From NCBI GenBank assembly GCA_903842795.1, contig CAIMNJ010000017.1, forward strand, positions 1 through 54,571: DNA of 54,571 nt, read 5' to 3'. The notes below the pieces were generated by a model. That model was not told where the DNA came from. It saw only the letters and a list, made by a program, of their open reading frames with translations, and did no database searches. This stretch comes from an uncultured bacterium. GTDB taxonomy: Bacteria > Patescibacteriota > Microgenomatia > UBA1400 > PJMF01. Below, in pieces: positions 5,879 through 51,449 of this stretch; the stretch's first letter is position 1, and every line of letters begins with the position of its first letter. A program made the position numbers and the translations under genes.

Positions 5879-5883
5879 TTTTA

Positions 5884-7287: not shown

Positions 7288-7311
7288 GAGCCTTAATTAG
7301 TTTACTAAATT

Positions 7312-8172: not shown

Positions 8173-8195
8173 CGCTACTCCATTTTAGCAGGTTT

Positions 8196-9212: not shown

Positions 9213-9217
9213 ATTTT

Positions 9218-13039: not shown

Positions 13040-13060
13040 TGGCCTTTAAATAGTAAGAAA

Positions 13061-13069
13061 TGATATAAT
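13061..13069 (+). promoter_or_regulatory. Extended -10 element TGATATAAT, 19 nt upstream of the 13089 ATG
   Basis: Perfect TGnTATAAT in the 49-bp divergent spacer. It is the same 9-mer as upstream of rpmH. Confidence 0.45.
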
Positions 13070-13088
13070 ATCCGCATCTAGTTAGACT

Positions 13089-16000
13089 ATGATTTTGCCT
13101 GATGATATAGCTCCACCACAACCAGAGGCACAAGGCTTTGAAACAGCTGATACTTGGATTGCAAAGAAAGAGGCTGAAATTGAAGAGTTAATTATTGAGA
13201 TAGAAACCGAGCTGGAGTTAAGTGGCATTAATAAAGGTGATCCTCATAATAAAGATTCTTTTATCCATGAAACATTTAATGCCGGCCTTAAGTCTATTTT
13301 AGTTGAGCTGGCTAAAAGATTGAAAACAGATGCTCTCGGTAAAGCCAAGTATGAAGCTTTTAAAACAAAGCTTTTAGCAGAGAATGAAACTGGAATTCGT
13401 TTTAAGTTTTTTAAAGAATGGGGAGTAAAAATTGATAAAAACGAAGAGCTTATAAATGTATCTAAAATGACTTTGGCTGATCTTGCTGATTATGTTTGTA
13501 CTAAAGAACTTCCTTTTTATAATGGTACTCATGATCAATGGTCTGATGATAATGATCGTAAAGTAGTTGATGCATTGATTCAAAGACTTTGGAAAGATAA
13601 GGACAAGGTTTCTGGAACAAGTAGTGATCCAGTTGTGTTTGGTAGTCGTAAAGAACAAGAAAAAAAGAATGGTAACCCAGTTTTTAACCCTGACGGTTCT
13701 CCAAAGATGATAGATGTGCCAATTTATGAGATGCGTAAAGTGAGGGTTACTAAACCTGATGGCAGTGAAGAAGTCGTCGAAGTGCCTCGTTATTTTTCAG
13801 ATTTAGATGTGCGCGAATCTGTTACAGATTTGCAAATTTTGGCTTTGTTCGGAGAATTGAATGAAAAGGGTAAGGAAAGAAAAGATGATGGTGTGGCAGA
13901 AGGTCGTATCACTGAGCTTGAAGCAGTTATGGCCAAATTGCAAATTTCTAAGGAAAGACTCAATTTGACTACTTTTGCTCATCCACGCTATGGCAGAATT
14001 TTGTATGAGGTGATGCGCAGAATGAAGGACCAACCGGCTTTAAAAGAAGGAAAAGTTTATAAGCCAATTAGATTGGAAAAGGGTGATGCTAGTGCAGTTA
14101 TTGGTAGAGATGTTGTAAATGATAGAGTAGTTTTGAGAAATGGAAAAAAAGTAATTTTAATTGGTGATCGCAAAGATTCTGATTTTCAAGACCTACTTCC
14201 GGGAGATCAGCTTTTACTTGATTATGATGATACAGTTAATGGAGTTATTCCAGATATAACTGAAGATCGTTTAATAAAAAGACATGGTGAAATAATTGTT
14301 TTATACGGCAGTCGTTTAAAGGTGTCTCTTAATCCAGCTAATGGAGAAGAATGTGGTTTTGAAATCATAGAGCAAACACCGCATTTAGAGAAGGGAGATC
14401 AGCCTTATTCTGGTCCAATTCCAAAAAAGATTAATGATAGAGTAGTAAAGCGCAATGGAATGGACAAGTTACTTGTTGGTAGTAGAGCTACTAAACTGAT
14501 CAGTGAAAATGGTGCTGAAATTGGAGCAAGACTTTATGATGGAGATGCTGCTATTTCTGGAGATATTCCTCTATATGAATATGATCATCGTTTTACTTAC
14601 GAAACCTTAGCCAGTGATACTGGTAAAGATGCTTTGAAAAAATATGTTATAAAACTTTTAGAAGACTTGGAAACTCAAAGAACCGGTGGAAAAGTTTCTT
14701 TCGAGCAACTCCAAGGAATAGATCTTCCAGATCCAAATACTGAACTTGGCGAAAAAGACTTAAAAAGATTGCACATGTACGCTCGTTATCTTTTCTTTAG
14801 TTTTCCATTCTTAACTAATATTTTGGCTGTTAGACAGGAAAGAACTCAAGCTCCTGCTCATGGTTTTAATAATAAAGATATTCCATATGTTTGGATTTTT
14901 GATATGCCAGGATTTATTGTTCATAAATCTCAGCGCTATGCTAACTCTGATACAGCTTATTATTACATGCTTAAGTTCTTTAAAGAGTTTGAGCAAGGAG
15001 CTTATGGTGCAGAGGGTCAAGCTGGTAGATTAAATAGAGCTAGAGATTTGGTAATTAAATACGATAAAGTCTATAGCGATGGAGAAGAAAACGTTGGTGT
15101 GATTCCGGAAATGCCGTATGGGTCATCTGTTTTCCATACAGCTCTTAGTATGGTTGCAATGTCAGTTGATGAGAGAGCTTTACTCGAAGGTTATGCTGAA
15201 CTTTACAACGGTAAAGATTATAAAATAAAACCAGGGAAACTTTCTGACGAGGAGAAAGCTTTAGGTTGGACCAATGATTCGTTGTTGTTATCTTTAGATG
15301 GAAAAGCTAAGAGAATAAACACCCAAACCCAAAAACCTCCGATGTTTTATAACTTTGCCAATCTTTTTACCTCTATTAGAGCCTGGGATGCTTTTACCAC
15401 TAGAGTTATGCAGGAGTTGCCAGATAAGCTAAGCATTGTTGATGTGGCAGAAGGCAAGGGTAAAGAAAAATCTTTAATCGGAAAAGTTTATGGTGATAAT
15501 ATTGGCCAGGCTAAGATGAGTAGTGTTAAGACTCCGGAAAAAGCCAGAATTCCAGAATTAAGGGAATATAATCATCTTACGTTGGCAGCCAATGCTCTTT
15601 GGGACTTTGTTAAAAGAATTTTTATTGAATATGAAGCAACAAGTATTGATGCCAGAATCGAGCTTTATGAACAGTTGGAAAAAGGTTTTAAACATACGGC
15701 TGAGGTCGGAGGTTTGTCTAGTGGAGATGCTGCCTATGTTCTTTCTTGGGTACTCGATAAGATGTCTAAGCCAGATGAAAGCGGTAGACTTTATGGAAAA
15801 GGACGTAATGGTTTTAAAGGCATGAATCCTTGTCTTGGTCCACAAGAAGCTACTGTTACAGGAACAAGAGGTAAAGAAGTTTTTGAATACGTTGAGGCAC
15901 TTTGGAATTACAAGCATTGTGATGCTGATGGCAATGTACCTGAACAAAAAAAGTTTCCTTTCAAGCTTATTCCCGGAATCAAAGTACTTGGCCATTTAAC

Positions 16001-16166
16001 TTGGAATGTAAAATTGATTAGCCAAGTATTTGACCCAGATCCAGATATTAAAACTTACGAAGCTATGCTATATGGAAAGAAATATGATAGTAAATCTGGG
16101 AAAATGGTTGCCGCTCATTTACCAGCTCCATTTGAGAGAATCGATGTCGACAAACACGATGACTAA
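13089..16166 (+). CDS. Large cytoplasmic protein of unknown function
   Basis: 1025 aa with no signal peptide, TM helix, Walker motif or HxH motif. It contains a three-fold internal motif: NDRVVLRNGKKVILIGDR, EDRLIKRHGEIIVLYGSR and NDRVVKRNGMDKLLVGSR. It is the only plus-strand gene between 1 and 18041 and is embedded in the T4SS-like locus. Confidence 0.7.
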   Translation: MILPDDIAPPQPEAQGFETADTWIAKKEAEIEELIIEIETELELSGINKGDPHNKDSFIHETFNAGLKSILVELAKRLKTDALGKAKYEAFKTKLLAENETGIRFKFFKEWGVKIDKNEELINVSKMTLADLADYVCTKELPFYNGTHDQWSDDNDRKVVDALIQRLWKDKDKVSGTSSDPVVFGSRKEQEKKNGNPVFNPDGSPKMIDVPIYEMRKVRVTKPDGSEEVVEVPRYFSDLDVRESVTDLQILALFGELNEKGKERKDDGVAEGRITELEAVMAKLQISKERLNLTTFAHPRYGRILYEVMRRMKDQPALKEGKVYKPIRLEKGDASAVIGRDVVNDRVVLRNGKKVILIGDRKDSDFQDLLPGDQLLLDYDDTVNGVIPDITEDRLIKRHGEIIVLYGSRLKVSLNPANGEECGFEIIEQTPHLEKGDQPYSGPIPKKINDRVVKRNGMDKLLVGSRATKLISENGAEIGARLYDGDAAISGDIPLYEYDHRFTYETLASDTGKDALKKYVIKLLEDLETQRTGGKVSFEQLQGIDLPDPNTELGEKDLKRLHMYARYLFFSFPFLTNILAVRQERTQAPAHGFNNKDIPYVWIFDMPGFIVHKSQRYANSDTAYYYMLKFFKEFEQGAYGAEGQAGRLNRARDLVIKYDKVYSDGEENVGVIPEMPYGSSVFHTALSMVAMSVDERALLEGYAELYNGKDYKIKPGKLSDEEKALGWTNDSLLLSLDGKAKRINTQTQKPPMFYNFANLFTSIRAWDAFTTRVMQELPDKLSIVDVAEGKGKEKSLIGKVYGDNIGQAKMSSVKTPEKARIPELREYNHLTLAANALWDFVKRIFIEYEATSIDARIELYEQLEKGFKHTAEVGGLSSGDAAYVLSWVLDKMSKPDESGRLYGKGRNGFKGMNPCLGPQEATVTGTRGKEVFEYVEALWNYKHCDADGNVPEQKKFPFKLIPGIKVLGHLTWNVKLISQVFDPDPDIKTYEAMLYGKKYDSKSGKMVAAHLPAPFERIDVDKHDD

Positions 16167-16253
16167 AGATCTGTGCTCATCTCTTCATTAATTTGCAAAA
16201 AAGTTCTAAAAGAGTAGAAATGTAGAAATATTGAAAAATTTAATTTTTAAAAA

Positions 16254-17933
16254 TTATTTTTTCTTATTAAAATAATCTCTCATCATCTTAGTTAAATCTT
16301 CAGGATCAAAAGCTCTACCTTCAACTAAACGGTCAAGTTGTACTCTAATGGCTTGTCCACGGTCAAAACCCTTCTTGGCCCCACCCATACCTTCAGGCAA
16401 GTCTTGATGAGAACCAGTCACACCACCAAAGTTTACGGCGGGAATTCCAGCTTCTGGATCACCTTTTCTCTGATATCCAGTCCAAGCATGTTTTAGTACA
16501 TCCATGCCGCTGGCACCGCTACCATAATCTCTCTTATAGTTGATTCCTGATTTAATTCCACCATAAGCGCCTTCAGCAACACTAGTAATCAGTGGAGCAG
16601 TGATTGTGCCTTCTTTCATTCTCTTAAATGCACTACCTGCCAATTGTCCAGCAATGCCGTCTTCAACACCCATGGCTTTTTTGACTTGCTGCATGATTTC
16701 TGGGATGACCAATAAAACACCAATACCAAGAATAACTGGCACGATTGAGCCTTGTCCTTGGCCAACCAAGAATGGTGGCATAAAACCTCCGCCAAAAGCA
16801 GCATCAAGAGTTTGGCCTGTGCCTTGAAGACTGCGAATTGGAGCAGTGAGCATGCGTTGTACCAAAATACAAAGTAAAACTACTGGCCAAAGGATGAGAT
16901 TACCAGTTAGATCTTTGATCCATTTACCAAAAACATTTTTGCCTGGAAAGGCACCCATCATCAAAATAATAGGGGAGAAAATAATTTGAATAAGGACAGC
17001 AACATAGGCTTTGACTAGTTCAAAGAAAACTTTGAAACTAGCAAAAAGAATAGCGATACCAATAATTACGGTACCCAGTAAACTTGACATCCAAGCAATA
17101 GCTTCGCCAACCAAACCAATGTTGAGTGCATCCTCCATGAATTGCTCGATGGCGTTTTGGGTGGTTCCGGTAGTACCCTTAAACATTAAACCAACCAAAC
17201 CAAAGATATTGTGAGTAACAATTTGTGGACCCTCGGTGAAAAATCCGGCCAACATGTACATCATTACGTACATCAAATCGATCATAAAACCAGCGATAGC
17301 ATAAGAAAAAGTAACGGCCAGCATGGCAATAATGATATTGGGAATAGCTTGTTGAGCAGTGATGGCTGCCTGATCAACTTTGGTTCTGAACATAATCATG
17401 AAACCAATTACCAAGAAAGCGACTACGAAAAACAAATAAGCTAAGTTTCGAAAAGCCTTCCAAGTTTCAAGGATTGGATCAAGAGCAGAAAAGCCAAGAC
17501 CTTGAGCCTGGGCTTCTGGAATAATTTTGGCTGATTTCATAACGTCTGCCACGTAGGTGCGAGCACTGGCTGGAGGAGTGTACATGGCTACGATGCCGCT
17601 ATTTATGTCTCCAAGAACACCATAGCCAATTTTTTTCTCCAATTCTTTCATGGTACTTTGAGGAATACTGCCGTCTTTGGGAATGGCAGCCATACCAACC
17701 GAGTGAAGATTGATGTTGCTAAGCGTATTAGAAAGACTTTCAGCGTCAAATTTCTCTTTATCAGCATTTTTGCTAGAAAAAGATTTAACATTCTTTTCTG
17801 TAGAATCATTGGTAAAAATATTTTGTAAATAATCAATAATTCCAGCAGCTCTAGTTGGTTTGGCAGATGCAAAGAAGCATGAAAAGACAAAAAACAAAAT
17901 CAAAAGCAAGCGAGAGGTTTTTTGCTGCAACAT
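16254..17933 (-). CDS. VirB6/TrbL-like polytopic membrane protein
   Basis: 559 aa. It has a signal peptide (LLLILFFVFSCFFASAKPTRA), at least 6 TM helices in the central part, and a Gly-rich cytoplasmic tail. The call rests on topology and locus context. Confidence 0.5.
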   Translation of the reverse strand: MLQQKTSRLLLILFFVFSCFFASAKPTRAAGIIDYLQNIFTNDSTEKNVKSFSSKNADKEKFDAESLSNTLSNINLHSVGMAAIPKDGSIPQSTMKELEKKIGYGVLGDINSGIVAMYTPPASARTYVADVMKSAKIIPEAQAQGLGFSALDPILETWKAFRNLAYLFFVVAFLVIGFMIMFRTKVDQAAITAQQAIPNIIIAMLAVTFSYAIAGFMIDLMYVMMYMLAGFFTEGPQIVTHNIFGLVGLMFKGTTGTTQNAIEQFMEDALNIGLVGEAIAWMSSLLGTVIIGIAILFASFKVFFELVKAYVAVLIQIIFSPIILMMGAFPGKNVFGKWIKDLTGNLILWPVVLLCILVQRMLTAPIRSLQGTGQTLDAAFGGGFMPPFLVGQGQGSIVPVILGIGVLLVIPEIMQQVKKAMGVEDGIAGQLAGSAFKRMKEGTITAPLITSVAEGAYGGIKSGINYKRDYGSGASGMDVLKHAWTGYQRKGDPEAGIPAVNFGGVTGSHQDLPEGMGGAKKGFDRGQAIRVQLDRLVEGRAFDPEDLTKMMRDYFNKKK

Positions 17934-17939
17934 ATAACA

Positions 17940-17945
17940 AGTATA
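17940..17945 (-). promoter_or_regulatory. -10-like TATACT 6 nt upstream of the VirB6-like ATG
   Basis: Minus strand reads TATACT-tgttat-ATG, with no SD. Confidence 0.3.
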
Positions 17946-18004
17946 TTTTAAATTAAGTAGAGGAAAACTGCAAAAGATAAATCAAATTTATTTACTCAGA
18001 TCTA

Positions 18005-18033
18005 TTGACATGTTTCATAAAAACATTTAAAAC
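18005..18033 (+). promoter_or_regulatory. Sigma70-like promoter (TTGACA-17-TAAAAC) 8 nt upstream of the 18042 ATG
   Basis: TTGACA is at 18005-18010 and TAAAAC at 18028-18033. The spacer contains the inverted repeat ATGTTT-cataa-AAACAT (18010-18026). Confidence 0.4.
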
Positions 18034-18041
18034 TATCATAA

Positions 18042-18833
18042 ATGATCGATCAAGCACAAACTGATAGATTTAAAGAAATTTTAGCGCTTAGCAAAAATAC
18101 TTTAGTTATTTTTCCAGAAACCAAAAATCTTGACTTATTTCTGGCCAGTTATGGTTTTTTTCTTTTTTTATCTTCAAAAATGGGAGTTAGATTGCTAAGT
18201 CCCAAGTTTAAACATAAAATTCCGACCGAAATTGCAAATTTAGTGGACATGCAAAAAATTGAGAAAGAACTTGGCAAAGAAAATTTACTCATCAGTTTTC
18301 CATATAAGGAAGACCAGGTGGAAAATGTTTCTTATTATATTGGTGAACAAGACAAGCGCTTTTATCTAACCATCAAGCCAAAAAAAGGCTCTCAACCATT
18401 ACAAAGCTCAAGCGTGGAGTTTTCTTATGCGGGCACAGAAGTGGATTTGTTAATTTTATGTGGAGTAGAGAATTTGGAAAATTTATCACAATTATATTTT
18501 GCTTATGAGAATTTATATAAAGGTACCGACAACCATTTGGTAACGATCAATGACTTCATTCCTGATTTTGGTAGTCTAAATTTAGACATTTCAGCGACGA
18601 GCTCTTATTGCGAGGCTGTTTTTAGTTTGCTCAAAAATTTATATGAAGACAGTGAGGATTTATTTACTAAAAGCAATATTCCAACAATTTTACTCTATGG
18701 AATAGAAAACAAGACCAAAGCGTTGCAATCTTCTAAAGTCAGCGCTAATACCTTTTTGGCAGTAGCGGAGCTAATGAGTCTTGGGGCAGAACGTTTGTTT
18801 AAATTGCAAAATAATAAAGCAAGTAATGGCTAA
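18042..18833 (+). CDS. Degenerate DHH-family (NrnA-like) protein, catalytic motifs apparently lost
   Basis: 263 aa. It is collinear by eye with the NrnA DHH domain: DLLILCGVENLENL vs VIVCDTAN, HLVTINDF at the DHH position, SSYCEAVFSLLK vs SSVSEMIYELY. The DHH histidines and the N-terminal DxD are absent, and there is no DHHA1 domain. Confidence 0.35.
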   Translation: MIDQAQTDRFKEILALSKNTLVIFPETKNLDLFLASYGFFLFLSSKMGVRLLSPKFKHKIPTEIANLVDMQKIEKELGKENLLISFPYKEDQVENVSYYIGEQDKRFYLTIKPKKGSQPLQSSSVEFSYAGTEVDLLILCGVENLENLSQLYFAYENLYKGTDNHLVTINDFIPDFGSLNLDISATSSYCEAVFSLLKNLYEDSEDLFTKSNIPTILLYGIENKTKALQSSKVSANTFLAVAELMSLGAERLFKLQNNKASNG

Positions 18834-21778
18834 GGTGCAGCCATTCCTGAACCTGATTCGTTGAGTAGAATAGCAGTTGTAACTGACCCAGGTCTTTCGT
18901 ATTTTACGTATTTGCTGCCATCGCTTAGGTTTTGGCATAGGCTAGAACTGGCAAAACAATGTTCTTTGACTTGTTGCAAATGAGCTTGAATTTTTTCTTC
19001 AGACCAAGCATCTGGAGAGTTGCTTTGAGCCATAAAATCTCTAATGTGTTGAGCAATTTGTTCCAATTCGTAGTCAGTGCCTTCGGTTTGACAGCTAAAT
19101 TCAGCGAAATCCATGCAATAAATTAAATCCATGTCTGAGTGTCTATCGTCGATCCAAGCAACTGGATGAGGGTGATCTTCTGCTGGAAATTGTGCTTCGC
19201 ATTTGCCGCCTTCGCGCCATCTTGTTGCTCTAGGATTATTGTCCATGTCGCTACTACAATTCATATTTCCAGGGCCATTGTAGTTACCAATAGCTTCAAC
19301 CAAATCTTCATATTGGATGTTGTTTTTATCAAAATTTCCTGGCCAATCATCTTTAATTAAGTGTTCCATGGCAGCTTTTGCGTCTTCTTTGAGACTAGTG
19401 CTAAGTGGTGCGCCACTAAAAACAGAGCCATTAGGATCGAGTCCAGCTTCAGTCCAGTGAATTCCAGCCACCACCTCACAAGGAATGCCTGTTTCTTGTT
19501 CTGCATATTCATAGGCTTCAATTAGTTCAGGAGTAATTCTTGGAGCAATGTCAGAGTTGAACATATTTTTGGCAAATTCAGGAATTTGACTTGCTGGAGG
19601 CAGGCCTTTAATGTTCTTAAAAGCTTCACCATTACAAAAAGACTGATTGGCAGCACCTTTTGGATCTCCTTTGCAGCGGCCAAGGAACATATCTTCAACT
19701 CTTTGGCAGGAGAGAATGTAATCATATGTTTGATTGTATGTGTTACGTAGCTTTTGCTGGATTTTACGCACCATAAAACCAAGTCCAAAATCTGGAAGCA
19801 ATAAATTACCCTTACTAGAAGATTCCATTCTGCTAGTGATATCGCTAAAGCCAAATCCGAAAGCATAGTGAGAACATTTCATGATTGTTGTCCAGACTCC
19901 ATTTTTAAAAATTTCTTCTGGCAGACATTCATCTATTGGATGGATTTCTTGTGAAGCGCCGATGCCCAAATCAGCACCTTTGATGGTGTAATATTTTGGA
20001 ATGGCACCCATCTTACTGGTGCCGTCATCGTTGGTCATATCTTCGATAATATTTGTTCTGACTAAATTGAAAAAATCCTCTTCACTCCAAAAAATACTTA
20101 GAGCCTTATTGGTATCTTTAATATTTTCACCTACTGGCAAAACAAGATAAGCATTAACAATCATTGGTGGATCTAGTGGTGGTCGATCTTCATCTACGAC
20201 CAGCTCCCATTCGAATGGGGTAATGTGTTTATCTTTCAGCTGATCAACTAATTGTTTGTTGGGTGAACTTCTGTAACTATATTGCTTCATTTCTTTTGAA
20301 GCGGGAGTGAACAGATCTCCAGCAGCTTCCCAGTTTAGGTCTTCTTGATTAAAAACAAGCTCAATACCACTTGCGGTGGCTTGTCTTTCATTGATCGCAA
20401 AACTGGACATATCAATCTGTTCACCGGTTTCGCTAGTGGTGTTTTCAATCACTCTGAGAGTGTCGTTTTTGCATTTTAGAGAAGCGCCATTAATGATACT
20501 GATAAGACTTTTTTCCAAAGGCTTGCCACATTTTGGATAGGGACAATGAATAACTGGATCTGGCTGAGTTTGTGCTAATTCGTAAAGCAACTCTCTTCTG
20601 TCAGCTTGATCTTTCAGGTCTTTGTCATTTTGTTCTTTTGGCTGAATGACCATTCTGGTAAGTTCTAGAGTGTCAATGTTGCCAGCAATTCTTGATTTGT
20701 TGGTGCCAAAATCTGGGATTTTAAAAGCGATAAAGATTGGGGCATGAACTTGAGCGTCTATTTGTGGATCTTCTTGTAGGAAATAAAACTTATCGCCATC
20801 ATCATCTTTCCCCGGATCTTGAGTGGGCACTAATACTAAGAAAGCAATACGATAAAGCGTATCCAAATCAATTGGAATGCGACCGATAGCTTCTCTGGTT
20901 TTAGCTATTTTGTCAGGACTTACCGTTGGTGGCTTATAGTCAATTGTTTGGGTATTGCTGTCACCACCAGTAAGATCAAAACAGACTTGTTGATAGAGTT
21001 TTTCACCTTCCAATTCTGGTCTGATTTCTTTCACCCAATCAAGTAAATCGGTAATTTTGAAGTCAACATCAACAATGTGCTGATCTGAAGTAATGTTGGC
21101 AGCTTCACCATCAGTGACTATTTTGCTGCCACCGTCTTGGTCAACGGCAATTTTAAAATTATATTTTTTATTAATAGTGCAGTCATCGGTAACTTCATCA
21201 CAAATAAGTTTGGAAGCCAAAATATTTTGAGTTTTGGCTAGACATTGTTGATAAGAAGATAAGACTCTTTTGCCAACGCCAGCAGCATTAAGCATGTAAC
21301 TGTTTTGAGCTGTTTGATAATTAGCGCCAAACATTCCTTCCAGAGAACTATTTTTTTGGGTGCTATTTTTGTCTTCCATGCCTCGATACATAGGAATGCG
21401 AGCCTTACTCATATCGACCAAATATGGATCAACACCATCAAAAATAGTTGGATTAAGGCCGTGATAAAAGCTTTCTTCTGGTGGAACATCTCCGCTAAAA
21501 AACTTATTGATGTCTCCAAGCAATTTTTTATCAATTGTCCACTGCATGGCAGCACAGTGAGCTTCATAGCCCTGATCTTTGACCATGGCCTTCAAAATTT
21601 CTTCAGTACTGTAACTAGTACCGTTTGGCAAAAACATTGGCATGAGTGTAAATGCACTTGTTGATTCTGCTGATTGAGCGGGGGAGTCTTCGGCTAAAAC
21701 CAAACTTGGAAAAAGCAAGGCGGAACAAACCATCAAAAACAAAACCAAAACCGCTTTTTTTGAAAATCGATTTAACAC
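18830..21778 (-). CDS. Large secreted protein with a C-terminal SLT/lysozyme-like domain (VirB1-type role)
   Basis: 982 aa with a signal peptide (VLVLFLMVCSALLFPSLVLA). Near the C-terminus, GIPCEVVAGIHWTEAGLDPNG and EAIGNYNGPGN resemble the SLT motifs (E-S/A-G-x-N/D-P and AYNAGPG). It is Cys-rich. The start codon is GTG. Confidence 0.5.
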   Translation of the reverse strand: MLNRFSKKAVLVLFLMVCSALLFPSLVLAEDSPAQSAESTSAFTLMPMFLPNGTSYSTEEILKAMVKDQGYEAHCAAMQWTIDKKLLGDINKFFSGDVPPEESFYHGLNPTIFDGVDPYLVDMSKARIPMYRGMEDKNSTQKNSSLEGMFGANYQTAQNSYMLNAAGVGKRVLSSYQQCLAKTQNILASKLICDEVTDDCTINKKYNFKIAVDQDGGSKIVTDGEAANITSDQHIVDVDFKITDLLDWVKEIRPELEGEKLYQQVCFDLTGGDSNTQTIDYKPPTVSPDKIAKTREAIGRIPIDLDTLYRIAFLVLVPTQDPGKDDDGDKFYFLQEDPQIDAQVHAPIFIAFKIPDFGTNKSRIAGNIDTLELTRMVIQPKEQNDKDLKDQADRRELLYELAQTQPDPVIHCPYPKCGKPLEKSLISIINGASLKCKNDTLRVIENTTSETGEQIDMSSFAINERQATASGIELVFNQEDLNWEAAGDLFTPASKEMKQYSYRSSPNKQLVDQLKDKHITPFEWELVVDEDRPPLDPPMIVNAYLVLPVGENIKDTNKALSIFWSEEDFFNLVRTNIIEDMTNDDGTSKMGAIPKYYTIKGADLGIGASQEIHPIDECLPEEIFKNGVWTTIMKCSHYAFGFGFSDITSRMESSSKGNLLLPDFGLGFMVRKIQQKLRNTYNQTYDYILSCQRVEDMFLGRCKGDPKGAANQSFCNGEAFKNIKGLPPASQIPEFAKNMFNSDIAPRITPELIEAYEYAEQETGIPCEVVAGIHWTEAGLDPNGSVFSGAPLSTSLKEDAKAAMEHLIKDDWPGNFDKNNIQYEDLVEAIGNYNGPGNMNCSSDMDNNPRATRWREGGKCEAQFPAEDHPHPVAWIDDRHSDMDLIYCMDFAEFSCQTEGTDYELEQIAQHIRDFMAQSNSPDAWSEEKIQAHLQQVKEHCFASSSLCQNLSDGSKYVKYERPGSVTTAILLNESGSGMAAP

Positions 21779-21784
21779 GACTTG

Positions 21785-21790
21785 ATTATA
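21785..21790 (-). promoter_or_regulatory. -10 hexamer TATAAT 6 nt upstream of the GTG start of the 982-aa gene
   Basis: Minus strand reads TATAAT-caagtc-GTG, inside the 27-bp gap after the pilin-like gene. Confidence 0.3.
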
Positions 21791-21805
21791 CTAATAATAG
21801 GGGTT

Positions 21806-22447
21806 CTAGGAAAGAATGCGAATTCCAAAAATCAACTCTAGTAGTTGAGCAATCCAATAGGCCGCAAAAAGCAAGATAAAACCCATAATAGCAGCGGTAA
21901 TTCTTTGCTTTCCCTCATCAAGTGATTTGGAATTATTTGCTCCAGCGAGCATTTGAAAGCCTCCGAGCAATAAAACCATAAACAAAATAATACCGGCGAT
22001 TGGAAATACAAAACTGCCTAAAGCTTTAGAAATAATTCCTCCAGGAGTAGTTAGGTCAGCATCACCACCACCAACGGAAATAGGATTAAGATTGCCTAGA
22101 GTTTGTTCACTAACGGTGGTATTTCCAAAGATACAATCTTTTGCTCCAGCAGCATAGGTTTCTCCACAGAAAGCAGTGGTTTCGCTTGGGTTGGCGGTTA
22201 AGCATGAATCCCAAGAATCACCTTGTTGTACCCAGCCGCAACAAATCCCTCGGTTAGTCCAAATGATATCCCATTGCTCATATGATTCCCACTGTGCACC
22301 TGGACAATTGCAGATTGCGCCATCTGGAACAGTTGCGCTACCATTAGTTTCGCCACAGCCATATTCGGTTGCTTTAGCAATTCCAGCAAAAAGAAAAATA
22401 AAAACTATTTGTAGAAATATGGTTCTAATAATTTTTTTCATGATCAT
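21806..22447 (-). CDS. T4SS pilin-like protein (VirB2/TrbC-type C-terminal hairpin) with a Cys-rich N-terminal ectodomain
   Basis: 213 aa with a signal peptide. The C-terminus FPIAGIILFMVLLLGGFQMLAGANNSKSLDEGKQRITAAIMGFILLFAAYWIAQLL has two TM helices and a basic loop, the layout of T4SS pilins common in CPR genomes. The mature N-terminal part has 9 Cys. Confidence 0.65.
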   Translation of the reverse strand: MIMKKIIRTIFLQIVFIFLFAGIAKATEYGCGETNGSATVPDGAICNCPGAQWESYEQWDIIWTNRGICCGWVQQGDSWDSCLTANPSETTAFCGETYAAGAKDCIFGNTTVSEQTLGNLNPISVGGGDADLTTPGGIISKALGSFVFPIAGIILFMVLLLGGFQMLAGANNSKSLDEGKQRITAAIMGFILLFAAYWIAQLLELIFGIRILS

Positions 22448-23310
22448 TCTCCAAATCCTGGGATGTGCAGAATCGATACACCAATAAATTGTAAAATAGT
22501 AACTGAAAAAATAACAAACAAAAGTCCAATAATTGCAGAAGTGATGTTTTCCTTAGCCTCCTTGGTTTTATTTGGATCACCTTGAGATACAGATAACATA
22601 AAAGCGCCAACTAAAATCATAATTAAAACAACACCACCTCCAAGTGCCAAACCAATGGTGATTACAACTTTGATGATTTCATCTGGTTTGCTAGGAATAC
22701 AACCAATTGCTGTCCAGATGCCATTGCCATTGAAACAAGTGGCGCAAGCTTCATATTGAGGAGTGCCAGTTTTGATTTGAGCACAAAGCTCGTAGTTGGA
22801 GGTGCTGTCTAAATTTTCATTGCATTCTTCTGCAGCACATTGAGCCTGCACCATAGTGGAGCTGGCGACAACAACAGTATTATTCTCACCGCCATTTTGG
22901 CCATCATAGTCATTAGAAAGGTGGACAATAAATTCGTAAGAACAGCCGCCCTTAATTTCACTTCCTGGAATGGTTAGGTTTGCTGAGCCATTAGTAACAA
23001 CTGCTTCAGTGTAGCCAATTTCTGGCCAGTCGCTGCAACCACTGCTACCATTAATTCTGACTTTAACATTGGCGCCATCTGGAAAAGGTAGTCCATTATT
23101 GTATGCGAGACCAGATAAATTGACGGTAGCATCAGTTCCAGCTTCTACACAACCATTAAAAAAACTACAGCTTTTGCCGTCTCTAGTTTGATAAACTTGG
23201 GAAGTTTCTATAATTGGCGCTGGGTCGCCAGCAAAAACCTTTTCTTTACTCAAAGAAACTGCAATGCATAAGAACAAAAAACCAAGAGCAATTTTTCTCA
23301 TCTTTTTCAC
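22444..23310 (-). CDS. T4SS pilin-like protein (VirB2/TrbC-type C-terminal hairpin) with a roughly 190-aa Cys-rich ectodomain
   Basis: 288 aa with a signal peptide. The C-terminus VVITIGLALGGGVVLIMILVGAFMLSVSQGDPNKTKEAKENITSAIIGLLFVIFSVTILQFIG supports the pilin call. It overlaps the next gene by 4 nt (ATGA). The track start is GTG. The ATG at 23299-23301, preceded by AAGGGTG, is a likely alternative start. Confidence 0.7.
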   Translation of the reverse strand: MKKMRKIALGFLFLCIAVSLSKEKVFAGDPAPIIETSQVYQTRDGKSCSFFNGCVEAGTDATVNLSGLAYNNGLPFPDGANVKVRINGSSGCSDWPEIGYTEAVVTNGSANLTIPGSEIKGGCSYEFIVHLSNDYDGQNGGENNTVVVASSTMVQAQCAAEECNENLDSTSNYELCAQIKTGTPQYEACATCFNGNGIWTAIGCIPSKPDEIIKVVITIGLALGGGVVLIMILVGAFMLSVSQGDPNKTKEAKENITSAIIGLLFVIFSVTILQFIGVSILHIPGFGE

Positions 23311-39189: not shown

Positions 39190-41229
39190 TTAATTGCCAA
39201 CTAGGTTTTGATCAGAAGTGAGCGCTCCATCTTGAATAACGTTTTCTGTGGCTTGTTTGTCTAATAGATTAGATAGCCCAGAACTTTGTGAGGCACTATT
39301 ATTGATTGTTTGATTTATTGGAGCTGCAGTTGGTGCAATTTCTTTTTTTGCTTTGTTGCTCTCAATTTGAGAGGAAAGCATATTTAATTCTTTTTCTACA
39401 GCTTTGTATTCTTCAGTGTCTTTAGCCAATAAATTTAAACTGTTGATCAGAGAACTCTTTGCTTCAGTTGTTTGGCCATTGGCAATTAAAGCCTTGGATA
39501 AATAGTAGTGAGCAATAAATAAGTCTGGTTTTCTCTCTATCGCTTGATTGAAGAAAGTAATGGCCTCGGAATATTTATTGGTATTCAAGAAAAGCTGGCC
39601 AAGCACAATTCTTAACTCGGGGTCACTTGGGCTATAGGTAGCTGCACGAGCGAGGGAGTTGAAAGCCTCTTGTTGAGCTTGCGCGGTTGTGCCTAGCAGT
39701 TGCATGTAAATTTGAGCCAAAACCGACCAGTTTTGGTAGTTTTGAGGATCAAGGACAGTGGCAGCCTTAGCTTCTCTAATGGCTTGATTTACCAATTGTA
39801 GAACTTGCTCTTGCTCAGCTGGAGTAATGTTGGTTTTATTGGACAAAGCAATGGCAATTTGCAAGTTGGTTAGAGAGTAGCTTCTTCTGATGAAGTCAAT
39901 CTGTGGAGCCAAAATTTTGGCATTTTTTTGGTAATCATAAGCTTTGGCGATTTCATTTTTAGTGACACTAACATTGCTCTTGTAAAGCAAATTGTAGGCA
40001 ATGAATGTTTTGGCGCTAATAAAAACTGCCAAGCCAGTCACGACTGCAATGAGCACATTGCTGGTTAAGAAGACATAGTTTCTTATTTTGGCTAATTTAC
40101 CTCTGTTTAATAAATCAGAAAGACGATGAACGCTAAAATTCACAATTTGAAATTGACTGTTGTAGGCAGTGATGAAAAAAGCGAGTGCTAATGCAAGTAG
40201 GCCAAGCATTGGCAAATTAACTGGAGCTAAAAATTGCCAGGCAAGAGTAGATAAAATAAAAACCTTGAGAAAGATTTCTTGATCGTCGCTTTTTCTTACA
40301 GTAACAAAAGCTTTCCATAAAAAGATCAGATAAACCAAGAAAGAAATTAATCCAGTGCTAACAATAATGGTTAATGGCAAGTTGAAGGCAGAATCAAAAG
40401 TAAATTTCCAATAATTAAAACCATTAACCCAAATTGGCTTGAGGATGTTGTAGGCGTTGCCATAAGAGTCTGGACCGTAACCAAACAAGGCATTTTTGGT
40501 AAAAGTTAAACTGTCAGAAGCAATGCTGGCACTGCTTTTGAGTGAAAGACTTTGGAATCTTGCTTCACCTTTTGGCAAAATTGACCAAATGTTGATTCCT
40601 AGAGCAATAGCAATCAGAACGGTGGTTATTTTATTAAAAAGAGAATCTTTCCAAGATTTTTGATCAAAAACATTACTCAATAGAACCACTGACAAGAACT
40701 GAATCGTTACAAAAGCTGCTCCGGTCAAGGAAAAACCCATCGTATTTGGCAGGTCTAAAACACTTAGTTTATTGATGATTGGACCAATGCCTAGACCAAA
40801 AAGTTGAAAGATAGACAAGACACTCAAGATGATTGCGGCAATATTGGATGACAAAACAAAATATTTGCTAAATTTTTCTTTCAACAATGATGGTGCCAGC
40901 AATATTGTTATTACAAAACTAAGGTAAGCACCACCCATTCCCAAGAATTGTTTGCTGGAGTATTGATGACTAACCAAGCTAGAAATTATTGTCAGGCCAG
41001 CAAATCCAATCAAGGGAAGAGTGAGAGGATTTTTTACAAATTCCCAGCTTTTTTTCTGCAAACTTTGAGCAATGAAGGCAAAAATACTAACAAATGCCAA
41101 TAAAAAGAACAGCAACAATTTACTGTTGATTAAGGGATTGAAAACATATGGGAAGAAAAAAGTTGGTAAAAGAAACACCATTGAAACAAGGAACCAAGTA
41201 AAAAAAGTGTTTAATTTATTTTCTTTCAT
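39190..41229 (-). CDS. O-antigen ligase/Wzy_C-like polytopic membrane protein with C-terminal TPR repeats
   Basis: About 12 TM helices, then the loop motif ALFGYGPDSYGNAY typical of O-antigen ligase-like proteins, then TPR-like repeats (YYLSKALIANGQTTEAKSSL etc.). I place the start at the ATG at 41227-41229 (MKENKLNTFF...). The track's longer version, up to 41376, overlaps the pilin gene. Confidence 0.5.
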   Translation of the reverse strand: MKENKLNTFFTWFLVSMVFLLPTFFFPYVFNPLINSKLLLFFLLAFVSIFAFIAQSLQKKSWEFVKNPLTLPLIGFAGLTIISSLVSHQYSSKQFLGMGGAYLSFVITILLAPSLLKEKFSKYFVLSSNIAAIILSVLSIFQLFGLGIGPIINKLSVLDLPNTMGFSLTGAAFVTIQFLSVVLLSNVFDQKSWKDSLFNKITTVLIAIALGINIWSILPKGEARFQSLSLKSSASIASDSLTFTKNALFGYGPDSYGNAYNILKPIWVNGFNYWKFTFDSAFNLPLTIIVSTGLISFLVYLIFLWKAFVTVRKSDDQEIFLKVFILSTLAWQFLAPVNLPMLGLLALALAFFITAYNSQFQIVNFSVHRLSDLLNRGKLAKIRNYVFLTSNVLIAVVTGLAVFISAKTFIAYNLLYKSNVSVTKNEIAKAYDYQKNAKILAPQIDFIRRSYSLTNLQIAIALSNKTNITPAEQEQVLQLVNQAIREAKAATVLDPQNYQNWSVLAQIYMQLLGTTAQAQQEAFNSLARAATYSPSDPELRIVLGQLFLNTNKYSEAITFFNQAIERKPDLFIAHYYLSKALIANGQTTEAKSSLINSLNLLAKDTEEYKAVEKELNMLSSQIESNKAKKEIAPTAAPINQTINNSASQSSGLSNLLDKQATENVIQDGALTSDQNLVGN

Positions 41230-41257
41230 CTTAATGTTAAGATTAAATGATAACAAG

Positions 41258-41968
41258 ATGAAAGTGAAGCAGCAAAAAGGTCTAACCTTAATAGAAATTT
41301 TGATTGTGGTGGCACTTTTGATGCTTATCTTGTTGGCTCTTTTTAGAGTTTTTAATGTCGATATAAATCGAACCAAAGATGCTCAGAGAAAAAGTGATTT
41401 ACGCGATATTAAATTGGCTTTTGAGGATTATTACAACGATCATCAGGAATACCCAGAGGAAGCTGCTTTGGCAGATTGTAGTGGTAATTCTTTAATGCCT
41501 TATTTAAGCAAAGTTCCTTGTGATCCTGTAACTGGAGAACCATACCTATACATTCCTTTTCCAGGGAATGGCGACAATAGTCAAGGTTATAGAGTTCTGA
41601 GCAGACTGGATGATACTTCCGATCCGATAGTTGCACAGCTCGGTTGTCAGATGGGTTGTGGTATTCCAGAAAGCAATCCTCAGTTTCAAAATAGCTTCAA
41701 CTATGTTTATGGAATAGCTGAGGGTGTACCATTGGTATTGGAAGGAGCAGTTTTTCCCACCAATACTCCTATTCCCACCAGCACTCCCACTCCTGTTCCA
41801 ACTGCCACAGATTCTTATTGTGACACTCACATTTGTTTTTGTTGTGCTAATTCTGCTTACACCACTCAACAAGACTGCAATGTTTGGGTGCCAGGTAATA
41901 ACTGTGATATGGGTCCATTTACTACTGCTACCCAATGTTATAACGAGACACCTTGTCAGAAACAATAA
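41258..41968 (+). CDS. Type IV pilin-like protein (prepilin N-terminal methylation motif) with a T/P linker and a Cys-rich C-terminus
   Basis: MKVKQQKG/LTLIEILIVVALLMLILLALF is a class III signal with E at +5. I place the start at 41258, not the track's 41072. The C-terminus has PTNTPIPTSTPTPVPTA, then 10 Cys in about 50 aa. Confidence 0.75.
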   Translation: MKVKQQKGLTLIEILIVVALLMLILLALFRVFNVDINRTKDAQRKSDLRDIKLAFEDYYNDHQEYPEEAALADCSGNSLMPYLSKVPCDPVTGEPYLYIPFPGNGDNSQGYRVLSRLDDTSDPIVAQLGCQMGCGIPESNPQFQNSFNYVYGIAEGVPLVLEGAVFPTNTPIPTSTPTPVPTATDSYCDTHICFCCANSAYTTQQDCNVWVPGNNCDMGPFTTATQCYNETPCQKQ

Positions 41969-41970
41969 TT

Positions 41971-42528
41971 ATGAAAGCAACCAAAAATCAAAAAGCTTTT
42001 ACTTTGCTTGAACTGCTTGTGGTTATGGCAATTATGGCTCTTCTGGTTGGATTGGGATTGCGTACTTTTGGTAGTGTACAACAAAAATCTAGAGATGGTC
42101 GCCGCAAGCAAGACATTCAGAGTATAAGCAAAGCGCTTGAGCTTTATTATAATGACTACAAACATTATCCTTATGCTTCAGCAGGAAAAATTCTTGGTTG
42201 TGGTGAAAATGCAGCTGAGGAATGTGAATGGGGTGATGTTTGGCAAAACACCACCAACCAAACTCTATATATGGCAAAGATGCCGCTAGATCCTGGTGGT
42301 AGCCAGTATTTTTATTTGGCTGATGCTCAGGGACAAACTTTTCGTCTTTTTGCTTATTTAGAGAACTTGGAAGATGATGCTGTTGTCAAAAATGTTGATG
42401 GTGAGCCGGCTTATTATAGCGGTACTTCTTGTCGCATTATTGATTATGTTTTAACAGCCAACACTTGTAATTATATTGTAATGAGTTCCAACACCACGAC
42501 TGCTCCAAATGTGGTGGATAGCTGGTAA
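41971..42528 (+). CDS. Type IV pilin-like protein
   Basis: MKATKNQKA/FTLLELLVVMAIMALLVGL. The start is placed at 41971, 2 nt after the previous stop. Confidence 0.75.
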   Translation: MKATKNQKAFTLLELLVVMAIMALLVGLGLRTFGSVQQKSRDGRRKQDIQSISKALELYYNDYKHYPYASAGKILGCGENAAEECEWGDVWQNTTNQTLYMAKMPLDPGGSQYFYLADAQGQTFRLFAYLENLEDDAVVKNVDGEPAYYSGTSCRIIDYVLTANTCNYIVMSSNTTTAPNVVDSW

Positions 42529-42532
42529 AAAT

Positions 42533-42994
42533 ATGAAAAGAAATGCTTTTACTTTAATAGAACTATTGGTAGTAATTTCCGTTTTAGGTGTTTTAGTGGC
42601 AGTTTTATTACCAAACTTAATTGGAGTTCGTGCTCGTGCTAGAGACAGTGCTCGTAAGAACGATTTACGCCAACTCAAGGCAGCGATAAGAATGTATTAT
42701 AACGATTTCCAATCATATCCTCCTGACGATGACAACGGCAACATTGTTGCCTGTGGAGTGGATGGCTCGCTGACTTGCCCAAATGAAGATGATGGTTTTG
42801 CTCTTGGCAGTAATGTATATATGAAAGAAATGATTCCAAACAACGAATTTGATTATGTGCAAATGTCTGGAGGTGAAGATTTCTTGCTTTCTACAGTTTT
42901 GGAAAATGCTTCTGACTCAGACATCACCGCCAGCGTAGAACACTGCAATGTACCGGCACCAGTGGCTTCAACTTATTATATTTGTGCTGATTAG
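42533..42994 (+). CDS. Type IV pilin-like protein
   Basis: MKRNA/FTLIELLVVISVLGVLVAVLLPN. The start is placed at 42533, 4 nt after the previous stop. Confidence 0.75.
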   Translation: MKRNAFTLIELLVVISVLGVLVAVLLPNLIGVRARARDSARKNDLRQLKAAIRMYYNDFQSYPPDDDNGNIVACGVDGSLTCPNEDDGFALGSNVYMKEMIPNNEFDYVQMSGGEDFLLSTVLENASDSDITASVEHCNVPAPVASTYYICAD

Positions 42995-42998
42995 CCAA

Positions 42999-45900
42999 TT
43001 AATTGAAGTTTATTCCAGCTGCATTTATTCCACCGAGATTAAAAAGTCCTAATCCCAGATTCAAGTTGCTAGCTTCGCACCAAGAAGAGTAGAAAGGCCC
43101 AATAAAATATGGGGCAATACGATATTTGTAGGTGTGGCCATTGTTAACAGTGTTATCAATTATGCTGGTTGTGTTGGCTGGTAGATTGGTTTGAAAAGTC
43201 ACCCATGATCCACCGTCAACACTGCGTTGAACTTCATAGAAATTTTCATTTGTGGCATTGTCTGTCCAGACAATAGCAAGTTGAGTGTCTCTAATACTTT
43301 CACGGATAAAACAAGAACTAGCAGCCAATGGAGCAGACAAAGTAACAAAACTACGTGGAGTGTCTTGGGTGGCGCTCCAACTATTGCTACCTCCAGGATC
43401 AATGGCGTAACTTCTCCAGTAGTAGGTAGTATTTGGCAGTAGGTCGCTTTGTAGTGTGTAAGAAGATCGACTCTCGCTTGTGTAGGCAGTATTGCTTTGA
43501 GCATTTTGATTACTCCAACCAGTTTGTGAACTTGTTTGATCAAAAGTTTGGCATCCGGTAGTCATGCCAACATTAGTGCAAAGCTCAATTTTGTAGCGTA
43601 AATAATCTCCATCGATATCTTTGGCAGTAGTCATCAATGTTGGCCTAAAATAAGTATTTGTATTGCCATTGAGTGGTAAATCTAGGGTTGGAGCATTTGG
43701 AATATTGTTCATGGAAAAGTTTGCTGAAGCTGACCATGGACTAATTAAGTCAAAAATGTCCCAAAATCTAATACGCCAATAATATGTGCCACCATCAAAT
43801 GGAAGAGTGGTTCCTGCATAGCTAAAATCTTGAGAACGCATACCACTTGAAGATGCAGTCATGCTTTGTTTTCCAGAATCCCACATTACCACTCCAGAAA
43901 AATCAGAAGCATTATTTACTTCGATTTCATAGTAAATTGAGTCGTCACCATTACTGTCGCTGTGAATGGCTGAAAATTCTGGAGTTTGATCAATTATTGC
44001 AGTTGGATTGGTTAGCCCTTCAGTCAAAAGTGAAGTTGGTGCATCTGGATAGGTAGAAGTGGTGAAAGAGTACGGAGATCCCTGCGTGGCTGACCAAATG
44101 TTAGTTCCAGCAGGATCAATGGCATAGCTTCTCCAATAATAAGTTGTATTAACTGCCAAATTTGATTGCAAAGTATATGTTGCTTGTGAACCGCTTGCAT
44201 AAGCAGTATTGCTTTGAGCATTTTGATTACTCCAACCAGTTTGTGAACTTGTTTGATCAAAAGTTTGGCATCCGGTAGTCATGCCAACATTAGTGCAAAG
44301 CTCAATTTTGTAGCGTAAATAATCTCCATCTGTGTCGGTCGTGCTGGTTACAAATCCAAAAGTTAAATTGCGGTCAAGAGCTCCGTTGCTTGGGGAAACT
44401 AAAGTTGGCGTAGTAGGAATAGCGTTGGCAACGTAATCTAAGGTAACATTGCTTAATGTAGGCGATACAAACTCATTGCTAGAGTTAAAAATAGCTCGAT
44501 ATTGAAAATATCTGTTGCTAGTGCTGCTGGTTATTGTTGATCCAGCTGGATTAGTGAGATAATCTCCAGCGCTTTTAATGTCGTCTAGCCAAATGGTACG
44601 ACCTTCATTTCCGTTAGTGATTCTCAGACTAAGGTTGGTGCTAGTGTTTAGATGAGAATCTAATGGTTCAGTGATATTCCAGTATTCCTTTTGCCATTTA
44701 AAAACATTGGCGAGCGGAGTAAATCCAACATTTGAAAAGGTAGAACCACTATCCCAGGATGAAACTGTTACAGCACCAGTGCTTGAATTAATAGAGCTAA
44801 CATTTCCCTGAGCAACATACTCAACACCGTCATAGTTTTCTTTTACAATAATTTTATCTCCAACATATAAATTACTACCTTTATTACTTCCTCCAAAGCC
44901 ACGGCTATCTATAGTAAATGAAGTGTCGTTTATATCATCTATTATGTCGCTAGATTCTAAGATTGCAGCAAAATCTATAGTGACAGAATGGCTGCGAAGA
45001 CCGCTTTCATAAGCCTGGCGAATTTCGTCGGCGGTACGAGCAATATTACTAATGCGAACTTCATCAATTATCCCACTGAAGTATTCTGAAGCCCCAGCAA
45101 ATCTTCCCAAGACTAAATCAGTTGAAGTGTTGGGACTACCATAAGCTGAATTGTTAGCTGCCACAAGTTGCCCATTAACGTAAATTTTTAACCCGCTACT
45201 ATCTCCAGTGGCAGTCACATAATACCATTTATTTATTGAAACAATATTTGCTGTTGTTCTTAAGCTGTTTGTGGCACCACGATCCAGAAGTTGCAATGAT
45301 CCATCAGTTGTAACGCGGAAACGATATCCAGAATTATCTCCTTTATTAATGAAATTGCCATTTTGTAGTGCAGTTGGATAAATCCATGCTTCTAGTGTAA
45401 TGTTCGCAGGATCAAGAGAGTCGTTCTCTGGAATTGTAATGTAATCACTAGTTCCGTTTAGTTTTCTTGCTTTGCCAATTTTTCCTTGCACAAAAGTAGT
45501 GCCAGTTGGTGTGCCATGATTACTACTGCTTCCGCTGTTTCTAATGTATGCATTGTTTCCAGTTTGTTCATCCATGTGCCACAATCCAGCAGTATTAGAA
45601 TCTGGTTGGTAATTTGCGAAGGCTGATTCGCCGATAGTTGTAGTCAAATATGTCCCTGGTTTGTCAGCAGCAATTGAGAAGGGGATTGTGGTTTTTCCGG
45701 AAAGATCGGTGCTGTTAATAGTTTCATTAATGTATTGATCTCGACCCATGCGGTATGATTCTGCAATTTCGTCAGCGGTACGAGCAACATTACTAATGCG
45801 AACTTCATCAATGGAGCCAGTAAAGTATTCTGTTGATCCATACGTTGCCTTGCCGATTTGTAGGGTAGGGCTGCTAGGATTGGCACAATATCCGTAAGTA

Positions 45901-51449: not shown

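Follow-up and report, generated by a model that had tools for sequence, protein, structure and literature searches.

We analyzed a 54,571-nucleotide stretch of DNA (hereafter the window) that constitutes the whole of contig CAIMNJ010000017.1 in the assembly GCA_903842795.1 from an uncultured, ultra-small bacterium of the Patescibacteriota (Microgenomatia; UBA1400; PJMF01), and focused on a single gene on its minus strand that codes for a giant, predicted surface protein. The open reading frame (ORF) at 42999..51449 is open from an ATG for 2816 codons and hence encodes 2816 amino acids (aa); a gene caller chose an alternative TTG start 22 codons inside it, giving a product of 2794 aa. We cut the protein into its visible pieces and scanned every piece alone against the Pfam database. 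Together with a check of the ORF, this bore out the length and the domain order of an original prediction made from the letters of the sequence, namely a membrane anchor, a beta-rich domain without a Pfam family, then LamG, glycine-rich, LamG, glycine-rich, glycine-rich, LamG, LamG, a carbohydrate-binding module (CBM)-like domain, and four fibronectin type III (FN3)/Ig-like repeats. Four pieces matched Laminin_G_3 (PF13385; 88.0, 92.7, 123.4 and 112.3 bits, all above the gathering cut-off of 27.6 bits) and three matched Gly_rich_2 (PF21722; 70.8, 67.2 and 30.4 bits, cut-off 24.3 bits), the latter at the identical three places recovered by a scan of the genome, so that the assignment of these modules to the LamG and glycine-rich families holds; a further match, to the Ig-like Rha78A_N, fell within one of the C-terminal repeats. 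The short motifs that had been quoted as the start of each glycine-rich module and the terminal G.G(I/R)V(I/V)I are likewise present, at aa 607-620 and 851-857, 1105-1118 and 1377-1384, and 1444-1465 and 1708-1715. The description of the modules as strictly alternating does not stand, being contradicted by the very order with which it was proposed, in which two glycine-rich modules and two LamG domains are direct neighbors.

The N-terminus of the giant contains 8 lysine or arginine residues and no aspartate or glutamate, and is followed by a 19-residue hydrophobic segment (aa 28-46; 51312..51368, on the minus strand like all features of this gene), which is the sole one in the protein (Kyte-Doolittle 2.8, with no second segment above 1.6). 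The protein's 18 cysteines fall into nine near-neighbor pairs. A signal-anchor with its N-terminus inside the cell and an extracellular body would fit both of these features. The succeeding beta-rich domain (aa 47-297; 50559..51311), which ends in DPTIVH, has 56-61% identity to its counterpart in the orthologous proteins of three congeneric species, and leads into a contiguous LamG1 (aa 298-505; 49935..50558). At the other end of the protein, the four FN3/Ig-like repeats (A, B, C and D; aa 2344-2796; 43062..44420), delimited by Pfam and sequence comparison, are followed by a conserved tail, NLGLGLFNLGGINAAGINFN-COOH (aa 2797-2816; 43002..43061), which conforms to the pattern ..WC.T..L..G.F.h.Gh.h.Gh.h[NDQ]-COOH. 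The strict form of this pattern occurs in 32 of 120 relatives, and with near variants judged by eye in about 32-40 of the 120. Another tail (..GPT.DQ.MRHGKWF..G..Q.FWW..) ends about 25 other relatives, and both types could function as docking or sorting tags.

For the region between these two ends, we built a hidden Markov model (HMM) from the contiguous LamG1 and LamG4 (aa 1950-2150; 45000..45602) with their N-terminal strands included. It aligned to aa 1412-1435 (model positions 2-25) and to aa 1704-1898 (positions 11-218), which places the N-terminal strand of LamG3 (aa 1412-1436; 47142..47216; VGLWHLDETGGNGAYLKNSSS) 282 aa ahead of its body (aa 1719-1900; 45750..46295). Because the HMM finds the strand upstream and the body downstream, the third glycine-rich module, Gly3 (aa 1437-1718; 46296..47141), which was delimited by Pfam, the HMM and a fold match, interrupts LamG3 with 282 residues. 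In the relative P0030 this point is uninterrupted (..VGLWHFEETDGTGAYIKDSSINANHGTPTGT..), the strand being joined directly to NHGTP... Moreover, among the 120 best relatives, 55 contain a total of 66 segments comprising a glycine-rich module and then a LamG body, with or without an N-terminal strand in front, each of which aligns to the segment of the giant over at least 85% of its length. A structural model of aa 1405-1910 (506 residues; predicted local distance difference test (pLDDT) score of 78) renders the detached VGLWH piece as a strand, and a Foldseek search with this model recovered only LamG-type jelly-rolls, namely domain 4 of AbnA, PAPP-A and the lectin-like subdomain of the binding regions of clostridial neurotoxins, with nothing for the glycine-rich part. 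By these comparisons Gly3 is predicted to lie within the first hairpin of LamG3.

A comparable arrangement is seen at LamG2, whose N-terminal strand or strands (aa 549-592; 49674..49805) are separated from the body (aa 861-1052; 48294..48869) by the first glycine-rich module, Gly1 (aa 596-860; 48870..49664). Here the relatives with an empty site, typified by P0005, read ..AQWNFNE..GTLSGFDSTASQDADPDSGWTANN.., and the giant has about 266 residues ahead of SGWTANN. The LamG2 strand was placed solely by comparison with such relatives and their insert lengths, and from this comparison Gly1 is predicted to be inserted in the first hairpin of LamG2. The bead-like string of alternating modules that the original prediction implied has accordingly to be given up: at least two of the glycine-rich modules appear to be nested in LamG domains, and the apparent linkers between the modules, as set out below, are likely to be fragments of a split frame domain. 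In three dimensions the detached strands would pair with their LamG bodies and the frame fragments with one another, which would make this protein an extreme natural case of domains inside domains.

The evidence for the frame comes from the neighboring gene. As the original prediction had stated, a second, related giant lies upstream (51471..54569, minus strand), 21 nt before the first, and the two have the CBM-like/frame domain in common (E 9e-11); its ORF is cut by the end of the contig, such that just the 3' part of 1032 aa is available, which opens with the tail of a glycine-rich module. We concatenated the conserved linkers of six scaffold proteins into a frame HMM. In the giant these correspond to piece A1 (aa 506-545; 49815..49934; FTSNVIDL..W..LTW..TGDGET), piece A2 (aa 1053-1085; 48195..48293; IELQTR..WEEWRP), piece C1 (aa 1391-1410; 47220..47279; VKTEGTGSQKL), which would be the first strand of the CBM-like part, piece C2 (aa 1905-1947; 45609..45737; ..DLSGKTTIPFSIAADKPGTYL..IGESAF), and the CBM-like part with the last frame strands (aa 2151-2343; 44421..44999; ..RYFQYRAIF..LSNVTLDY). 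In a single-sequence search, this HMM matched the neighboring giant collinearly at aa 66-136 (E 2e-9), aa 171-220, the counterpart of C2 (4e-5), and aa 233-323, the counterpart of the CBM-like end (7e-16). Thus, segments that are spread over 1,840 residues in the giant occupy 258 contiguous residues (aa 66-323) in its neighbor, where the uninterrupted frame is followed by fibre-like repeats. The simplest reading of the split linkers would be a beta-sandwich frame that accommodates whole domains in its loops.

To place this architecture in a wider setting we collected the relatives of the giant, which number 622 at E<=1e-5 and have the same Pfam sets; those with names come from the Microgenomates group, Dojkabacteria, Gottesmanbacteria, Moranbacteria, and other Patescibacteria metagenome-assembled genomes (MAGs). 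The frame is kept in 21 relatives, three congeneric species among them. Across these 21 the lengths of the scaffold parts are constant (LamG1 204-230 aa, LamG2 170-195 aa, CBM-like part 167-183 aa), while the lengths of the intervening sites, which we term sockets, are bimodal, being either empty (33, about 42 or about 200 aa) or filled, with increments of roughly 250-300 aa. Thus, S0 measures 33 aa when empty and about 295 aa when filled; S1, the site in the LamG2 hairpin that is occupied by Gly1, about 42 aa and 288-462 aa; S2, S3 and LamG3 taken together 261 aa and up to 1464 aa; and S4 with LamG4 about 200 aa and up to 753 aa. In the giant described here S2 contains the second glycine-rich module, Gly2 (aa 1100-1384; 47298..48152), a cassette of the type characteristic of this socket, S3 is the site in the LamG3 hairpin taken up by Gly3, and S4 is empty. 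The occupants differ even within the genus: the glycine-rich modules are placed in S1, S2 and S3 here, and the other species have them in S1 alone, in S4 alone, or as two copies behind the CBM/FN region. Likewise, S2 is occupied by a beta-helix-like glycine-rich cassette in two of the three same-genus orthologues and by a DUF2341-like one in the third. Among different relatives (L015-L017, P0009, P0011 and P0017), this socket, which follows the ..W..W.P motif, holds at least four unrelated cassette types, namely TNF-like plus glycine-rich (TG)/glycine-rich, fibrinogen-C-like, DUF2341-like, and a small barrel with a beta-helix-like glycine-rich region.

A maximum-likelihood tree of 65 modules, whose socket labels were assigned by regular expressions, requires 26 changes of socket (minimum 4; mean of shuffled labels 36). 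The S2 modules form nearly a single clade, with 8 of the 9 lying behind a branch with 97% support, and the modules of S0, S1, S3 and S4 are intermixed; the S1 module of the giant itself belongs to a well-supported clade of four members from four proteins. In terms of the tree, one cassette type, that of S2, appears to stay in its socket and another to move between sockets. A scan with the Gly_rich_2 profile was positive in at least 8 of 41 genomes, a lower bound, as it missed two modules in a genome of the same genus (G004) that phmmer detects.

Turning to the structure of the glycine-rich modules, we queried the sequences of the PDB using Gly1, Gly3 and a 19-row profile and obtained no meaningful match; the link of the modules to ALK and to phage fibres is visible at the level of the fold only. 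A prediction of Gly3 alone, made with AlphaFold2 using 18 homologous modules as input, is confident (pLDDT 89.7, predicted template modelling (TM) score 0.89). Comparison of this model with the PDB gave, at ranks 1-24, solely the TG domains of ALK and LTK (E 8e-6 to 8e-4, probability 1.0), the tail tip of phage Bxb1 (9d93_Qa, E 1.7e-4) and the fibre of phage Pam3 (7ypx/7yfw), after which the E-value leaps from 2.5e-3 to 0.42. In BFVD, a collection of predicted viral structures, there are 190 matches, of which the best is the protein A0A1D7SXD8 of cyanophage S-RIM12 (TM-score 0.79, 40% identity) and which further include many phage tail-fibre and 'glycine-rich domain' proteins. These matches bear out the likeness to phage or viral fibre proteins that had been suspected from the layout of the modules. 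The fold serves ligand binding in ALK and LTK, and in phages it is found on fibres and tail tips. The module is widespread, with 4,480 cluster representatives at E<=1e-3 among 1.84 billion. Secondary structure assignment with DSSP indicates a few strands at each end of the Gly3 model and long stretches assigned to neither helix nor strand; the latter would be compatible with polyglycine-II helices, of which they are no proof. The known polyproline-II-bundle domains have been reviewed (bioRxiv 10.1101/2023.11.25.568672).

The glycine-rich modules accordingly resemble the TG supradomain of ALK and LTK (PDB: 7n00, 7nx1 and 7ls0; Pfam PF12810), in which a beta-sandwich also opens and closes the module around long runs of glycine. 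Unlike these receptors, the giant is a bacterial protein with no kinase and with three copies of the module, two of them predicted to be nested in LamG domains. The fibre of Pam3 (a cyanophage), the tail tip chain Qa of Bxb1 (a mycobacteriophage) and the S-RIM12 protein are proteins of the same fold that are extracellular and presumably bind a target. A further connection is with PHROG 2295, a family of phage proteins (profile length 1183), which has in common with the giant some 530 residues of LamG-plus-glycine-rich sequence in collinear order (aa 330-861, comprising LamG1, frame piece A1, the LamG2 strand and Gly1; E 5e-99). Because this match is collinear, it is a composite unit, and not single domains alone, that is common to the giant and virally classed proteins. 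Unlike the phage fibres, the giant is chromosomal, predicted to be membrane-anchored and syntenic, with no virion genes around it and no recognizable trimeric shaft. Giant LamG/concanavalin-like proteins of Patescibacteria, annotated as 'LamG domain-containing protein' (e.g. in Microgenomates and Dojkabacteria MAGs), belong to the same family and have the same frame. Modular type IV pilins and fimbrial subunits of the TafC type also display LamG on the protein of a surface appendage, and the giant adjoins pilin genes; TafC (NCBIfam NF052521) gives a domain-level match of 106.4 bits that covers the LamG regions only and is below its cut-off of 410. Unlike those proteins, the giant is without a prepilin motif and is about ten times larger.

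The giant is encoded in a genome of 871 kb in 18 contigs that is rated complete. The window further contains dnaN, dnaA, a type IV secretion system (T4SS)-like cluster, and genes for RadA, a VirD4-like ATPase, Rho, an M23/LysM peptidase and Obg, and the locus is part of the core chromosome and not a prophage. Three overlapping pilin-like genes on the plus strand (41072..42994), all with the N_methyl prepilin motif and the middle one also with T2SSG, converge on the giant. The gap of 4 nt between the stop of the last of these and that of the giant (42995-42998), which the original prediction had pointed out, is confirmed, as is the pilin neighborhood itself, which is conserved in the nearest relatives: the order giant, giant, three pilins, tetratricopeptide repeat (TPR) protein, Obg, M23 and Rho recurs in L003 and L004, the closest relatives outside the genus, and more distant genomes retain the giant pair near M23, TPR and Rho.

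Taken together, we consider it reasonably likely that the giant is a surface-anchored frame with plugged-in domains, and that it functions most likely as a multivalent adhesin. The protein would be held in the membrane by its single N-terminal transmembrane segment, with the remainder outside. Its core would be a beta-sandwich frame made up of the unnamed domain and the CBM-like domain, the loops of which would carry LamG2 (with Gly1 in its first hairpin) inside the first part of the frame and Gly2 behind it, and LamG3 (with Gly3 in the same hairpin) and LamG4 inside the CBM-like part; LamG1 would stand ahead of the frame and the four FN3/Ig-like repeats and the short conserved tail behind it. 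In this manner up to seven lectin-like or fibre-tip-like heads might be shown to a partner cell or surface, with the specificity altered over evolutionary time by cassettes being moved or swapped among fixed sockets. Binding is the established role of both LamG domains and TG modules in the cases studied, as ALK/LTK and the tips of phage fibres illustrate, and the adhesin reading follows from this. Such a protein would be exposed at the surface and bind there, probably in attachment to a host, and the specificity might be set by which cassettes fill which sockets.

Several observations weigh against this reading. In Pfam terms only Gly3 reaches ALK_LTK_GRD (PF12810) at all, with 18.1 bits (E 0.0028) against a cut-off of 24.5 bits, and its model aligns to the solved structures of ALK, LTK and the phage proteins with modest TM-scores (0.28-0.46 overall and 0.35-0.46 for ALK/LTK) and large root-mean-square deviations. 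The FN3-like repeats are distal to the heads, which is unusual for a stalk given an anchor at the N-terminus only. The case for cassette movement draws in part on a module in S4 of another species of the genus, which has 69.9% identity to the S1 module of the giant, with the scaffold pieces at 37-62%; this value is suggestive but not decisive since the background between modules is 50-57%, inflated by the glycine composition. The four-member clade of this S1 module was labelled with four sockets, but the 'S3' of G011 is really S4, which reduces these to three (S0, S1 and S4). Finally, the adjacency to the pilin genes is lost in more distant relatives.

If the movement of the cassettes is taken at face value, a more far-reaching system is conceivable, which we put forward tentatively and consider rather less than an even prospect: a conserved, deeply nested frame with at least six fixed sockets, whose self-contained cassettes, be they TG/glycine-rich, fibrinogen-like, DUF2341-like or beta-helix-like, would change sockets through recombination on a between-species time scale and be drawn from a pool common with phages (PHROG 2295). 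If true, each such move would redirect the grip of the bacterium, and perhaps that of its phages, to other partner cells.

Other interpretations of the same data can be weighed against the surface-anchored, multivalent adhesin. That the modules are consecutive along the chain, each above its own Pfam threshold, and that no LamG strand is found ahead of Gly2, would suit a plain adhesin in which LamG and glycine-rich domains are independent and tandem, joined by flexible linkers; we regard this as improbable, given the LamG3 strand that stands 282 residues before its body and is contiguous with it in P0030, the conservation of the supposed linkers and their match to the contiguous 258-residue region in the neighbor, and the bimodal socket lengths. 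An association with the pilus is compatible with the preferred reading: the giant might work with the three minor-pilin-like proteins, e.g. by docking via its C-terminal tail. The convergence of the genes with a gap of just 4 nt, the recurrence of the arrangement in the nearest relatives, a pilin-like gene just upstream in more distant ones, and the conserved tail in about 32-40 of 120 relatives speak for such a partnership, which we nevertheless deem unlikely, as the giant has no prepilin (N_methyl, PF07963) motif, is on the opposite strand from the pilins and hence not co-transcribed, the adjacency differs in distant relatives, and pilus assembly genes are absent from the window.

The viral resemblances raise the question of whether the gene codes for a virion fibre of prophage or phage origin rather than a cellular protein. 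In addition to the collinear PHROG 2295 match over aa 330-861 and the many viral fold matches, there are matches to phrog_8510 and phrog_701 ('virion structural protein') and LamG matches among cyanophage structural proteins. These have to be set against neighbors that are core genes with no capsid, terminase or tail genes among them, synteny of the locus across species and families, the predicted membrane signal-anchor, and a complete small genome with one such locus, in light of which a virion fibre is hardly credible; a prophage origin was rejected on the gene context, which is that of the core chromosome. The same modules might instead serve as a decoy or shield, with phage-like receptor-binding modules occupying or masking receptors, and both their sharing with phage fibre proteins and their quick turnover between species could be read in this way; determinants of host specificity are equally expected to turn over fast, and we give a decoy very little weight. 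A comparably slight chance attaches to the protein being not an adhesin but a glucanase-like enzyme or a polymorphic-toxin-like protein for toxin delivery. Laminin_G_3 does belong to the concanavalin-like lectin/glucanase superfamily, and the lectin-like N-subdomain in the binding regions of clostridial neurotoxins is matched weakly (PF07953, 24.6 bits, and fold matches), but these matches are limited to the generic jelly-roll, and none of the libraries scanned revealed a catalytic, protease, translocation or toxin domain.

Most Patescibacteria are thought to be attached to other microbes, and their genetics is very hard. The present gene family might offer a concrete candidate for a determinant of their partner specificity, combining a conserved frame with heads as on phage fibres, and the difference in the set of heads even among species of one genus might provide a testable handle on it. 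The frame also apparently tolerates inserts of 250-300 residues at defined loops, which is of possible interest for protein engineering. Each of the domain families is already catalogued and the idea of a giant LamG adhesin is known, so that the advance here is in architecture and evolution: lectin-like (concanavalin-type) surface proteins of Patescibacteria have been proposed to function in attachment (PMC12911398), and their giant proteins have been suggested to undergo domain reshuffling (PMC11809585). In the searchable literature we found neither the fixed-socket frame, the nested topology, the uninterrupted neighboring copy, nor the movement of cassettes between sockets within a genus, and no work on PF21722/Gly_rich_2 or on nested LamG/glycine-rich architectures.

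Given the repetitive nature of the protein, the reliability of the assembly was also considered. The DNA of the glycine-rich and LamG modules is alike in short patches only, at about 60-65% identity, and a collapse of the assembly across these modules is therefore unlikely. Two other public contigs hold the gene, one 100% and the other 99.97% identical, and since these are independent the LamG/glycine-rich architecture is reproducible. The 99.97% contig (ERZ18645544) is without exactly 717 nt (239 aa) between two 139-nt repeats in the FN3-like region, of which copy 1 (43475..43613) lies in repeat C and copy 2 (44192..44330), which is 98% identical to it and marks the breakpoint of the shorter variant, in repeat A. 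The number of FN3-like repeats is thus either polymorphic or was collapsed in one assembly. Repeats A and C are about 65-70% identical overall, yet include a sharply bounded tract of 128 identical bases that looks like a recent patch of gene conversion. A diversity-generating retroelement target was also considered and rejected, there being no RVT_1 match genome-wide and the sole long repeat having the identical 128-nt tract and not adenine-specific mismatches.

The three assemblies of this locus end within about 90 nt of each other (window 54500-54571), and these, along with one of the locus of the nearest relative (starts of L001, L002 and L003), all stop inside the upstream giant, at the tail of a beta-helix-like glycine-rich cassette (..GGAGGNGKIAISYS). 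Searches of the rest of the 871-kb genome found neither the 5' part of the upstream giant nor another glycine-rich module. The breaks point to a repeat or hypervariable stretch at the contig end that assemblers are unable to cross. Behind its frame, the upstream giant has about 700 residues without a Pfam match (aa ~330-1032; window 51471-53500), in which repeats such as ASISG.L.ANNIQA resemble fibre-shaft or coiled segments; the sole PHROG match in this region is a weak one to phrog_6185.

Elsewhere in the window, the T4SS-like cluster next to dnaA and dnaN (3662-23310) codes for a TraG/VirB4-type ATPase, a PrgI-like protein and two T4SS-pilin-like proteins, and is interleaved with genes for three large proteins (1273, 1025 and 982 aa) without a Pfam family. 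In the first of the pilin-like ORFs that converge on the giant (41072-41968), the prepilin motif does not come until residues 66-91, and the ORF overlaps the TPR gene on the opposite strand (39190-41376) at the latter's end; its true start probably lies about 60 codons further in.

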